Shown here: positions 5,250-35,607 of the stretch, in pieces | How the letters are laid out: each line of letters begins with the position of its first letter | How positions within the stretch are numbered: the stretch's first letter is position 1 | DNA from: Desulfobulbaceae bacterium | GTDB lineage: Bacteria > Desulfobacterota > Desulfobulbia > Desulfobulbales > DAOVSZ01 | Length of the DNA: 36,207 nt | Reading direction: 5' to 3' | Assembly: GCA_030627725.1 (NCBI GenBank) | Contig: DAOVSZ010000001.1 | Span: 1 to 36,207, forward strand | Notes under the pieces: model-generated | Databases searched by the model: none | The model's input: only the letters and a program-made list of their open reading frames with translations | What the model was told of the DNA's origin: nothing | Made by a program: the position numbers and the translations under genes

Positions 5250-5461
5250 AAATTAATTTTAAAAACGTAAAACGTGAACAGTCGGCTAAGGATTAAGGAT
5301 TAATGTTTGTAACCATTCACCGGGGGGCTACAGATTTACGGAGACCTCCGTCATGAAAGCGTTTACCAGTGCCTTAGATTTGTTCGTTTGGGCCTTTGAA
5401 CTATAGCCCCTCTATGTGAGAAGGGCAAAATGGACGAAGATGAGGTGCTGGTGAACGCTTA

Positions 5462-5944
5462 CTACTGTTTCTTTGCCCTGGACATGGCAATCAGGCCGGT
5501 CTTGATGATCTCCTGGATACCGATAGGCCGCAGGATATCAATGACCGCCCTGATCTTATCAGCCGTTCCGGTCACTTCAACAGCATAGCTCTTCGAACTG
5601 ACATCCACGACCTTTCCCCTGAAGATATCAATAACGCGGAGGACTTCGGCTCTCGTATTCGCCTCGGCCTTGACCCTGATGAGAACCATCTCGCGTTCAA
5701 CATATTCGGTTTCACTCATGTCCGTGACCTTGATCACATCGATGAGTTTGTGGAGTTGTTTGGTAATCTGCTCAACAATGGCGTCATCACCCGAGGTGAC
5801 CAGCGTCAGGCAGGAAATACCGGTCTCAAGTGTCTGCGCAACAGACAGACTCTCTATATTAAAACCCCTGCCACTGAACAGTCCGGTGACACGGGACAGA
5901 ACTCCCGGTTTATTCTGCAGTAATACTGAAATGGTGTGTTTCAT
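5462..5944 (-). CDS. ilvN: acetolactate synthase small (regulatory) subunit
   Basis: 160 aa. The ACT-domain N-terminus reads HTISVLLQNKPGVLSRVTGLFSGRGFNIESL. It sits directly downstream of the large subunit. Confidence 0.9.
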   Translation of the reverse strand: MKHTISVLLQNKPGVLSRVTGLFSGRGFNIESLSVAQTLETGISCLTLVTSGDDAIVEQITKQLHKLIDVIKVTDMSETEYVEREMVLIRVKAEANTRAEVLRVIDIFRGKVVDVSSKSYAVEVTGTADKIRAVIDILRPIGIQEIIKTGLIAMSRAKKQ

Positions 5945-28960: not shown

Positions 28961-29232
28961 GAAACCGGGATCAATTGACTGTGCCGGGATCTGGTTTCCT
29001 TACCAAAACGTAACTATTCAGTAGCACCCCATCCGCTTCTCCATACGGAGTTGAGCTGCACACGATCAGGCTGGTTCACATAGGACAACTATCGGAGTCT
29101 TCGCTCCGCTCCGCTTACCTGTTCTCCAGCCTGCTGGAGTTTATGCCCGGATGGGTACACATCTGGGGCACTTCTGAACAGTTACAGGATGGTGTTTAGG
29201 CTAAGTTTTTGGCTCCACCTGAATAGTTACAG
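28961..29232 (-). other. long structured 5' leader of the MFS gene, with three copies of a 12-nt motif
   Basis: GTAACTATTCAG (29010-29021) is the exact reverse complement of CTGAATAGTTAC (29219-29230), and differs at one base from the complement of CTGAACAGTTAC (29174-29185). Between them lie an 8-bp long-range helix (CCCATCCG/CGGATGGG) and three local hairpins (CTCCAG-cagg-CTGGAG, CGGAG-N6-CTCCG, CTCC-N4-GGAG). A GAAACC/GGTTTC hairpin (28961-28998) sits 22 nt before the ATG. Confidence 0.35.
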
Positions 29233-33244: not shown

Positions 33245-34327
33245 ATGGCCCAGACACAAGAATCCCTCAAAGACATCCGCAATGAGATTGATGCGATTGA
33301 CACGCAGTTTCTCGCACTGTTGAAAGCACGGCTTGCATGCGCGAAAAAGGTCGGACAGATTAAAAACAGGAGCAAAAGGGCCAAGTGGGACCCTTTACGG
33401 GAAAGGCAGATCTTTGAAAGACTGCTTCAGGAAAATAACGGCGAATTTCCGGAGCAAACCCTTACCAGTATCTTCAGGGAAATCATCACCACCTGCCGAC
33501 TTTCCCAAAAGGAGGTGGATGTCGCCTATCTGGGGCCTGAGGCGACCTTTTCCCATCTCGCCGGCGTCAAATGTTTTGGTCGCTCAGCAACCTACCGGCC
33601 CGTAGAGACTATAGAAGACATCTTTCATGAGGTGGAAAGAGGCCGGGTCCAGTACGGCATTGTGCCGGTAGAGAACTCGATCGAAGGCTCAGTCACCTCC
33701 TCCCTGGACGGATTTATGCAGTGCCGCGTGAAGATCTGCGCCGAGGTCCAGCTCGAGATATCGCACAACCTTGTCAATCAGTCAGGTGAACTCACAGATA
33801 TAAAACTGGTCGCATCTCATGCCCAGCCTCTGGCGCAATGCAGACAATGGCTGAAAAAGAACCTGCCTGATGTCCCTCGACAGAACGTATTCAGTACGGG
33901 AGTGGCTGCCAAGATGGCGGCTGACGATCCGACTGTTGCGGCGATAGCAAGCTCACTTGCAATCAAGACCTACCACCTGCAGGTTGTTGTCAAGGGAGTT
34001 GAAGACTACAGAGGCAACACGACCCGCTTTCTGGTCCTTGGTCAACAATCTCCATCGGCAAGCGGCAAAGACAAGACATCCTTGCTCGTCGGCCTCCTGG
34101 ACCGGCCAGGCGCTCTGCACAATATGCTCACGATATTTGCCGAGCGCGGCATCAACCTGACCAGGATCGAATCCAGGCCGATCAAGAGTCAACCCGGCAA
34201 CTATCTGTTCTTCCTTGATATGCTCGGACATATGAATGATGAAACAATCACCGAGGCATGTCTCCTGCTCAAAGAAAGCTGTTCGTTTTACGAGTGGTTG
34301 GGCTCATACCCCCAAGCGGACAGCTGA
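33245..34327 (+). CDS. pheA: bifunctional chorismate mutase / prephenate dehydratase (P-protein)
   Basis: 360 aa. It has the CM domain (LKDIRNEIDAIDTQFLALLKARL), the PDT domain (VAYLGPEATFSH, VPVENSIEGSV, TRFLVLG) and a C-terminal ACT domain (ESRP motif: LTRIESRPIK). Confidence 0.95.
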   Translation: MAQTQESLKDIRNEIDAIDTQFLALLKARLACAKKVGQIKNRSKRAKWDPLRERQIFERLLQENNGEFPEQTLTSIFREIITTCRLSQKEVDVAYLGPEATFSHLAGVKCFGRSATYRPVETIEDIFHEVERGRVQYGIVPVENSIEGSVTSSLDGFMQCRVKICAEVQLEISHNLVNQSGELTDIKLVASHAQPLAQCRQWLKKNLPDVPRQNVFSTGVAAKMAADDPTVAAIASSLAIKTYHLQVVVKGVEDYRGNTTRFLVLGQQSPSASGKDKTSLLVGLLDRPGALHNMLTIFAERGINLTRIESRPIKSQPGNYLFFLDMLGHMNDETITEACLLLKESCSFYEWLGSYPQADS

Positions 34328-34374
34328 GAAGGAGCCCCATGCACCGAATCTGCGCGCGGTCAGGGCAAACAGCA

Positions 34375-34550
34375 TAGGACTACTATAGCTGATTGCCCTG
34401 AGCACACACATCTCCGGCACCTGTGACCACTTCTCAGCTGTCGGCTGCGCCGACATGCTCTTTAGGACTACTATAGCTGATTGCCCTGACCACACACATC
34501 TCCGGCGCCTGTGACACCTTCTCAGCTGTCTGCTGCGCAGACTTGCTCGA
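34375..34550. repeat. two tandem copies of an 88-nt non-coding unit
   Basis: Copy A is 34375-34462 and copy B is 34463-34550, both starting TAGGACTACTATAGCTGATTGCCCTGA. I count about 8 differences by eye. Two of them are a compensatory pair in an internal hairpin: GTCGGC-tgc-GCCGAC in A against GTCTGC-tgc-GCAGAC in B. Confidence 0.85.
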
Positions 34551-34593: not shown

Positions 34594-35607
34594 ATGCTCA
34601 TTTTAGGAATTGAAAGCTCCTGCGATGAGACCGCAGCCGCAGTCCTTGCCGATGGCCGCGACCTGCTCTCAAACGTCATTGACTCGCAGATCGATATACA
34701 TGGAAAATACGGTGGTGTAGTGCCGGAGATTGCCTCTCGAAAACACATCGAGAATATCTATCCGGTGGTGCAGGAGGCATTGACCCGGGCCAATGTCACT
34801 TTAGACGACCTTGACGGTCTGGCGGTCACGCAGGGGCCTGGTCTTGTCGGATCGCTCCTGGTCGGGCTTTCTTTTACCAAGGCCCTCTCTCTGGTCAAAA
34901 AGATACCATATGTGGGCGTGGACCATATGGCCGGGCATCTGCTTTCCGTGCTCCTGGATAATAAGCCGCCTGCTTTTCCCCCTACTTTTCCCTATATAGC
35001 GCTGGTAGCCTCCGGCGGACATTCCAGTCTCTTCTTTGTTGAGGATACGGTCACTTTTCGACTCCTGGGAAGGAGCCGTGACGATGCGGCAGGAGAAGCA
35101 TTTGACAAGGTGGCAAAACTTCTGAAACTTGGCTACCCTGGAGGTCCAATAATCAGCAGAACTGCCGATAATGGAGACCCTGAGGCCATCGCCTTTCCCC
35201 GGGCATGGCTCGGTCCCGAGAGTCTCGATTTCAGTTTCAGCGGCTTGAAGACTGCTGTTGCCAACCACGTCCATCGTGAGGAAAAACAAGGGAGAAGCCT
35301 CAATATCCCTGACATCTGTGCCTCATTTCAGGAGGCCGTGGTCGATGTTCTTACAGAAAAAACGATACGCGCCGGCAGACAGTCAAAGGTCAAAAACCTC
35401 GTCCTTGCCGGTGGTGTTGCTGCAAACCTGCGATTACGCGAACGGATGCAGCAGAGGGGCAAAGAGGAGGGATTTAACGTGTTAATGCCGCCTGTTCACT
35501 TCTGCACGGACAACGCTGCCATGATCGCCCTTGCAGGTTTTCACCATTTTGAAGCAGCTGCAACCACGACATACGATATGGATGTCTACTCCCGGTCACG
35601 GTTTTAA
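34594..35607 (+). CDS. tsaD: tRNA N6-adenosine threonylcarbamoyltransferase
   Basis: 337 aa counted from MLILGIESSCDETAAAV. Motifs GGVVPEIASRKH, VDHMAGH and GGVAAN are present. The upstream extension in the track ORF lies inside the repeat region. Confidence 0.95.
   Translation: MLILGIESSCDETAAAVLADGRDLLSNVIDSQIDIHGKYGGVVPEIASRKHIENIYPVVQEALTRANVTLDDLDGLAVTQGPGLVGSLLVGLSFTKALSLVKKIPYVGVDHMAGHLLSVLLDNKPPAFPPTFPYIALVASGGHSSLFFVEDTVTFRLLGRSRDDAAGEAFDKVAKLLKLGYPGGPIISRTADNGDPEAIAFPRAWLGPESLDFSFSGLKTAVANHVHREEKQGRSLNIPDICASFQEAVVDVLTEKTIRAGRQSKVKNLVLAGGVAANLRLRERMQQRGKEEGFNVLMPPVHFCTDNAAMIALAGFHHFEAAATTTYDMDVYSRSRF

Follow-up and report, generated by a model that had tools for sequence, protein, structure and literature searches.

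Near the far end of the analysed window, a 36,207-nt stretch from a Desulfobulbaceae MAG (2.58 Mb in 332 contigs, 78% complete, 50% GC), the genes pheA and tsaD lie in the same orientation on either side of a 266-nt spacer rich in repeated and palindromic sequence (Table 1). The terminal 12-mer of this repeat element takes in the pheA stop codon TGA (34325-34327). TRF returned an 88-nt period at 34375-34548 with 2.0 copies, 91% matches, no indels and a score of 299. The two copies, A and B, are unlike at 9 of 88 positions, which bears out the original prediction of an 88-nt head-to-tail duplication of about 91% identity. None of the three ORFs over the repeat (two on the minus strand and one on the plus strand) had a match in a Pfam search.

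Table 1. Genes, repeat features and full family copies in the analysed window.
Feature	Position	Strand	Description	Evidence
pheA	33245-34327	+	bifunctional chorismate mutase / prephenate dehydratase	NCBIfam NF008865, 289 bits
Left terminal 12-mer	34321-34332	+	CAGCTGAGAAGG; inverted partner of 34429-34440 and 34517-34528	
Long-hairpin core	34327-34434	+	108 nt, probable decayed MITE copy	nhmmer E = 3e-18, aligned with 23 representative copies; nhmmer match 34322-34432
Tandem copy A	34375-34462	+	apical loop, right arm and internal terminus, then 28 nt of flanking sequence	TRF
Small hairpin A	34439-34455	+	TGTCGGC-tgc-GCCGACA then TGCTCTTT	terminator-like scan
Tandem copy B	34463-34550	+	second loop, right arm, terminus and adjacent sequence	TRF
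Small hairpin B	34528-34542	+	GTCTGC-tgc-GCAGAC; no T-run	one compensated pair relative to A
tsaD	34594-35607	+		TIGR03723, 433 bits
Canonical copy, expanded	29010-29230	+	core 29010-29185 (with inserts) and 45-nt module	nhmmer 29008-29188
Canonical copy, GTAAGCG subfamily	5309-5462	-	core 5355-5462 and 46-nt module	nhmmer 5354-5464

The terminal pairings that had been proposed for this spacer are present. The 12-mer CCTTCTCAGCTG (34517-34528, copy B) is the exact reverse complement of the left terminal CAGCTGAGAAGG (12/12), and ACTTCTCAGCTG (34429-34440, copy A) complements it at 11 of 12 positions. A further pairing, between TCAGGGCAA and TTGCCCTGA (34393-34401), was also recovered, but its left partner lies at 34360-34368 and not at 34349-34357 as first given. 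Of the two tandem copies, B is the better partner for the left arm and the one to which it pairs in the MFE fold.

Each tandem copy also carries a small hairpin, with the sequences and positions originally described. The inner stem of hairpin A, GTCGGC-tgc-GCCGAC, occupies 34440-34454, and a single two-sided change, G-C to T-A, separates it from hairpin B. Hairpin A with its downstream TGCTCTTT passes a simple terminator-like scan, which hairpin B fails. The small-hairpin sequence occurs only twice in the genome, both times at pheA-tsaD, and we therefore regard it as local DNA lying outside the MITE family described below. If nine substitutions fall at random over 88 nt, a compensated pair in an otherwise intact 6-bp stem is expected with P ~0.008, a nominal value for a single post-hoc event. 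Templated mutation in quasi-palindromes yields compensated pairs without selection. The two-sided change stands, and its reading as a signature of selection is weakened, since templated mutation could also produce a single post-hoc event of this kind. The small hairpin may be a weak pheA terminator under maintenance. As a separate observation, the compensated pair hints at upkeep of this hairpin and counts against the explanation favoured below.

A search of the 88-nt unit against its own genome recovered an inverted copy directly upstream together with dozens of partial matches, placing the unit in a repeat family. With the whole spacer as query, BLAST showed the repeated entity to be palindromic, about 92-110 nt long and with its centre near 34383, and iterated nhmmer searches extended the family to 241 distinct loci in the MAG, 186 of them full length. 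These loci are dispersed, non-coding and about 110-180 nt long; 220 of 228 lie outside long ORFs in a genome of which ORFs make up about 87%. At fifty-four loci a contig ends no more than 200 nt away, indicating that the family breaks the assembly. The suggestion of a genome-specific structured repeat family was accordingly right as to the repeat family and wrong as to genome specificity, since the element is spread across the order (see below).

In its canonical form the element measures about 153 nt: a 108-nt imperfect hairpin is followed by a second module of about 45 nt, which is made up of some 33 nt of spacer and a third copy of the terminus. The hairpin ends are GTAA(C/G)...TTAC, with GTAACTGTTCAGCAGCACCCCATCTGCACACGATCAGGCTGGTTCACATAGGACAACTATAGTTCTCCAGCCTGCTTGTGCACATCTGGGGCACTGCTGAACAGTTAC as the consensus of the main subfamily; cores start with GTAAC at 107 of 175 loci and with GTAAG at 33 of 175. 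The second module, for example AGGATGGTGTTTAGGCCAAGTATTCAGCACCAC, contains a short internal hairpin and closes with the third terminus, CTGAATAGTTAC. Alternative pairing among the three termini is a general trait of the family. Three full copies were found in the window by nhmmer (Table 1), of which the one at 29010-29230 is bounded by the target-site duplication ACCAAAAC / AGCAAAAC and the one at 5309-5462 by AAACAGTA / AAACATTA.

Such duplications are widespread in the family. The 8-mer immediately left of the element recurs right after the third terminus: among 175 full-length loci, a match of at least 7/8 was found at offsets 44-46 past the hairpin in 80, against 0.2-0.6 per offset for shuffled pairings. 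Smaller peaks were seen at offsets 50-51 and 18, and offset 0 gave no peak. Over offsets 10-59, 118 of the 175 loci have a duplication of at least 7/8, with about 0.3 expected per offset, and at 83 loci it is exact. At 69% A+T, the duplicated 8-mers are richer in A and T than the genome, which is 50% GC. Because the 8-bp repeats flank the whole element, the mobile unit comprises the hairpin and the second module together. Duplications of 8 bp are the footprint of a DDE transposon.

They also bear on whether the family might instead be a REP/REPIN-type palindrome moved by a RAYT (a Y1 HUH transposase). The long imperfect hairpin, conserved mismatches and strand asymmetry would fit such an origin, as would one PF01797 (Y1_Tnp) gene at C199:7029-7256, and the family resembles REP/REPIN-RAYT systems in copy number, intergenic location, conserved mismatches and defined orientation. 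REPINs, however, insert without duplicating their target and depend on a RAYT gene that they flank. Here, the 8-bp duplications are present, the Y1 gene is unflanked, with the sole family match on C199 at 2-81, and the element has the same termini as IS66-family insertion sequences (IS). To our knowledge, HUH Y1 transposases (IS200/IS605, RAYT) make no 8-bp target-site duplications. In view of the target duplications and of a Y1_Tnp gene without flanking copies, a REP/REPIN-RAYT identity was rejected; we consider it extremely unlikely.

We also looked for candidate partner elements. No IS66 transposase was found in the 78%-complete MAG itself, either by PF03050 search or by tblastn with a transposase from the same order. 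Among 151 genomes sampled from Desulfobulbales, 44 had PF03050 matches. Four of them (G037, G121, G047 and G127) contain elements of 1726-1730 bp with inverted ends GTAACTAT(T/C)CAGC, which are identical to those of the MITE for 13 nt. Exact 8-bp duplications, GAATATTT and GATTTTAT, flank two of these elements. The 1.73-kb IS belong to the weaker-scoring, single-ORF class of PF03050 matches, their one ORF of about 470 aa matching NF033517 'IS66 family transposase' at 295 bits (cut-off 180). G047 and G127 contain many MITE copies in addition to the IS. Past the 13-14 nt of the ends, the MITE and the 1.73-kb IS have nothing in common, so that the MITE body did not arise from these IS by internal deletion.

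These features point to the ISBst12 group of the IS66 family. ISDge4, an experimentally active member, has the end GTAACTGCTCAGCA, encodes one transposase and is flanked by a direct repeat of 8 bp (PMC12898284). The exact ISDge4 end, GTAACTGCTCAGCA, is present on some MITE copies here, and the ends GTAACT(G/A)(T/C)TCAGC and 8-bp duplication of the ISBst12-group IS (ISBst12, ISDge4) are common to the family. The family likewise matches ISBst12-group MITEs in being non-coding, and the putative partner IS in other genomes of the order have a single-ORF IS66-family transposase. Unlike a deletion-derived MITE, it has as its body a strand-asymmetric hairpin of 108 nt, whose boxes are conserved throughout the order and which is followed by the third terminus.

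In order to follow the family beyond its own genome, we used a covariance model (R1, alignment A1) built from 24 diverse copies and counted full-length matches above 100 bits. Matches were found in 123 of the 151 sampled Desulfobulbales genomes, covering 15 of 17 families and usually with many copies each. Elsewhere in the order, too, the copies show these boxes and this second module, and their 8-bp duplications are clean. Carriers recovered by an exact-pattern scan included Desulfobulbaceae, Desulfobulbus, Desulfurivibrionaceae, Desulfobia and Desulfobulbia MAGs. A search of Rfam 15 with the window spacer and four canonical copies, a check that the original prediction had proposed for its RNA reading, returned no family; the best matches reached at most 28 bits against thresholds of 50-100 and were miRNA and snoRNA look-alikes. 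In the open literature, we found no paper tying MITEs to Desulfobulbales taxa. MITE-like palindromes about 100-160 nt long and abundant between genes are known elsewhere, namely Correia/NEMIS in Neisseria and ERIC in enterobacteria, which are co-transcribed with neighbouring genes, form long hairpins and occur as length variants with inserts. The family described here resembles them in abundance, intergenic palindromic nature, long hairpins and insert variants, and differs in termini, duplication length and transposase family.

We then compared the spacer with that of relatives. The adjacency of pheA and tsaD is conserved across the order, yet in order-level relatives the two genes are separated by only 2-110 nt or by an extra gene, compared with 266 nt here. 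No matches to the MITE family were found in the pheA-tsaD spacers of these relatives, the comparison being at order level with a best PheA identity of 76% among genomes and 74% among metagenome contigs. Since these short spacers have no family match, the element between pheA and tsaD most likely represents an insertion. The C-terminal tails of PheA after WLGSYP are variable among relatives. On one distant metagenome contig (L167), an independent family member is found just after pheA in the opposite orientation.

The original prediction had offered two locus-specific readings: a pair of sibling small RNAs, one from each tandem copy, or a 3'UTR/5'UTR switch in the spacer that couples pheA and tsaD. 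The left 12-mer can indeed pair with either right-hand 12-mer, hairpin A is terminator-like and one small-hairpin pair is compensated. However, the three-terminus alternative pairing is general to the MITE, and the identical architecture stands beside unrelated genes at hundreds of loci (241 in this genome). Relatives with adjacent pheA and tsaD have no element in their spacers, no promoter-like site was found in the spacer by scan, and no Rfam family matches. Neither the switch nor the sibling small RNAs are supported by these findings, and we regard both as very unlikely. The complementarity of the stems would instead reflect the foldback nature of the element and not an RNA specific to pheA or tsaD.

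The copy at pheA-tsaD is atypical of its family. It retains the family boxes GCACCGAATCTG, GTCAGG, CATAG..CTATAG, CCTGAG and CACATCTCCGGCAC, while its ends, AGAAG...CTTCT, depart from the GTAAx...xTTAC of the family. Its identity to other members by BLAST is 65-82%, the best match being 82% over 97 nt. The palindrome runs on through CAGCTG on both sides, and no 8-bp duplication is recognisable around the copy, its flanks sharing only this palindromic hexamer. With neither GTAA ends nor an 8-bp duplication, the transposon origin of this copy rests on family homology. Compared with an ISBst12-type MITE, it has lost the GTAA ends and gained the 88-nt internal tandem duplication. Judged from these sequence features, the copy is probably old, decayed and immobile.

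The tandem itself most likely represents a neutral local duplication of half of this decayed copy. Copies A and B are 91% alike and family members far more diverged, and the simplest reading is thus that the 88-nt duplication is secondary, local and later than the insertion; we infer that it has no function. A half-copy nhmmer match at 34463-34515 corresponds to tandem copy B. Two other loci, C57:9015-9227 and C93:1242-1465, have the same arrangement of a full hairpin and, after it, a second right half, and palindrome-associated duplication therefore seems recurrent in the subfamily. The difference between 91% (A versus B) and 65-82% (family) is in keeping with a recent local duplication, but would also allow concerted evolution of an inherited two-copy layout. 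The converse derivation, with the tandem as the ancestral state and the canonical 45-nt module as a deleted loop plus right arm, was considered and dropped: leaving aside the shared 12-nt terminus, the module aligned with the right half at the level of shuffled sequence (mean score 10.5 versus 10.4). A search for long-form elements, in which target duplications would enclose a second half of about 85 nt and so show the tandem to be transposed as a unit, gave no convincing case.

An assembly artefact might be suspected in a repeat-rich, fragmented MAG of 332 contigs in which so many family loci (54) lie within 200 nt of contig ends. Against this, the two copies are unlike at 9 positions and meet at a novel junction between GCTCTT and TAGGAC, a sequence that assembly software would not make up. 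The small-hairpin sequence is moreover found only at pheA-tsaD, and two further loci have an equal layout. We therefore consider that the tandem is highly improbable as an artefact.

Taken together, we think it likely that 34321-34550 is a decayed MITE of IS66 type (ISBst12-type) with a later tandem duplication of its right half. In the sequence of events that we propose, the family would be moved in trans by single-ORF IS66-family (ISBst12-type) transposases, and one copy would have inserted exactly at the end of pheA, duplicating 8 bp of an A/T-rich target. Its termini would subsequently have drifted to AGAAG/CTTCT, with loss of the clean target duplication. Finally, the segment 34375-34462, including about 28 nt of adjacent DNA with the terminator-like hairpin, would have been duplicated in tandem, most likely by slippage at the palindrome.

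The hairpin body of the family has properties of its own. RNAalifold gave 28 consensus pairs, 25 of which show two-sided compensatory changes, a count that overstates the number of independent events because the copies are related by descent. On the plus strand of the model, which corresponds to the pheA sense strand at this locus, A·C mismatches outnumber G·T by 554 to 117, and tandem T·C/C·T mismatches occur at conserved positions in the CATCTG boxes. On the opposite strand, the same mismatches become G·U wobbles and tandem G·A pairs. In 98 of 98 standard copies, folding is more stable on the minus strand, with -64.5 versus -47.3 kcal/mol under RNA parameters and -31.1 versus -24.0 under DNA parameters, and in the window copy the values are -77.0 (minus) versus -54.2 kcal/mol (plus). 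The same bias is seen in copy-specific changes at consensus Watson-Crick pairs, whether counted as cells (45 versus 8), as distinct events (20 versus 5, P = 0.004) or as singletons (13 versus 3, P = 0.02). The loci are also biased in orientation: at 68 of the 103 that lie between co-directional genes (68 versus 35), the strand that folds less well has the sense orientation. Divergent gene pairs (36 loci) are favoured over convergent ones (21 loci), which argues against a terminator role.

These observations suggest a strand-specific constraint on a single-stranded form, be it ssDNA during transposition or replication, or RNA. In its stronger form, the 108-nt hairpin would function as a single strand, antisense to pheA at this locus, either as a folded ssDNA substrate or as a structured RNA, and the MITE would be the vehicle for a selected structure. 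This possibility, which we put forward tentatively, would account for the compensated pairs, the strand preference in mismatches and stability, the copy-specific bias and the orientation of the loci, and for internal boxes that are conserved order-wide and absent from the IS. On the other hand, Rfam holds no such family, kinship by descent inflates the pair counts, and a master copy or strand-biased mutation could produce the asymmetry. A strand-specific constraint is compatible with the MITE origin of the family and does not compete with it. As a side observation, the strand-asymmetric fold suggests that the hairpin body is more than junk, and it counts against the simple form of the best explanation.

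Recognition of the family has direct consequences for annotation. Three 'structured non-coding' features of the window, namely the pheA-tsaD spacer, a 'structured leader' at 28961-29232 and 5309-5462, belong to one MITE family, are to be masked as such and are not locus-specific riboregulators. The family takes up well over 1% of the genome. The class of element is already known, and the strand-asymmetric, order-wide conserved hairpin body is the sole feature worth following up. It is conceivable, if rather doubtful, that this hairpin is kept under strand-specific selection throughout Desulfobulbales, as an ssDNA substrate of the transposase or as a structured RNA spread by the MITE. If true, right-half duplications of the pheA-tsaD type would create alternative partners for the left arm. 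With its conserved, asymmetric and IS-unrelated body, the family provides a natural substrate for studying the poorly understood recognition and movement of elements by ISBst12-type transposases, and it allows one to ask whether formation of a hairpin by one strand belongs to the mechanism of transposition.

The segment at 28961-29232, upstream of the MFS transporter gene, was originally read as a "structured leader" whose 12-nt helices exclude one another. It is a canonical copy of the MITE family also present between pheA and tsaD: all three termini are in place, the duplication reads ACCAAAAC/AGCAAAAC, and inserts lengthen its hairpin to 176 nt. Hairpin length variants of 122-177 nt occur in the same genome and derive from discrete inserts of ~17-25 nt. 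Inserts occupy fixed positions: the apical loop, or a site inside or adjoining the conserved CATCTG boxes, where as a rule just one of the two hairpin arms carries them. At least six sequence types recur (e.g. GGAGTTTATGCCCGGATGG, CGAAGTCTGCGCTTATCTG, CGCTTCTCCATGCGGAGTTGAGC and CGGAGTCTCGC..GCTCGCTTAC), some inserts carrying a GTAAGCG-like end. Identical inserts were found across differing subfamily backgrounds, which implies either recombination among MITE copies or tiny site-specific insertions.

Coordinates of MITE-related features and of the Y1_Tnp gene
Feature	Location	Context
Canonical MITE copy	29010-29230	window
Hairpin length variant	29010-29185	window
Hairpin length variants, examples	C84:3896-4025; C59:20267-20395; C175:2696-2830; C144:6013-6149; C325:3946-4074	contigs of own genome
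Degenerate, independent hairpin-family member	L167 2600-2710	metagenome contig PJEL010003365.1, directly 3' of pheA
Y1_Tnp (PF01797) gene, 283 aa	C199:7029-7256 (L031 976-1827, minus strand)	own genome

The hairpin family may repeatedly target the 3' flank of pheA: a metagenome contig from a distant relative (71% PheA identity) carries its own member there, oriented opposite to the pheA-tsaD copy of the window. The window's own genome encodes a single Y1_Tnp protein with an HTH-like C-terminal tail, and no copies of the family flank its gene.

Across the family in its own genome, orientation between co-directional genes is non-random (68 vs 35), and loci are more common between divergent (36) than convergent (21) gene pairs. 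These biases are consistent with A/T-rich, promoter-side targets and with counter-selection of the strongly folding MITE strand in mRNAs.
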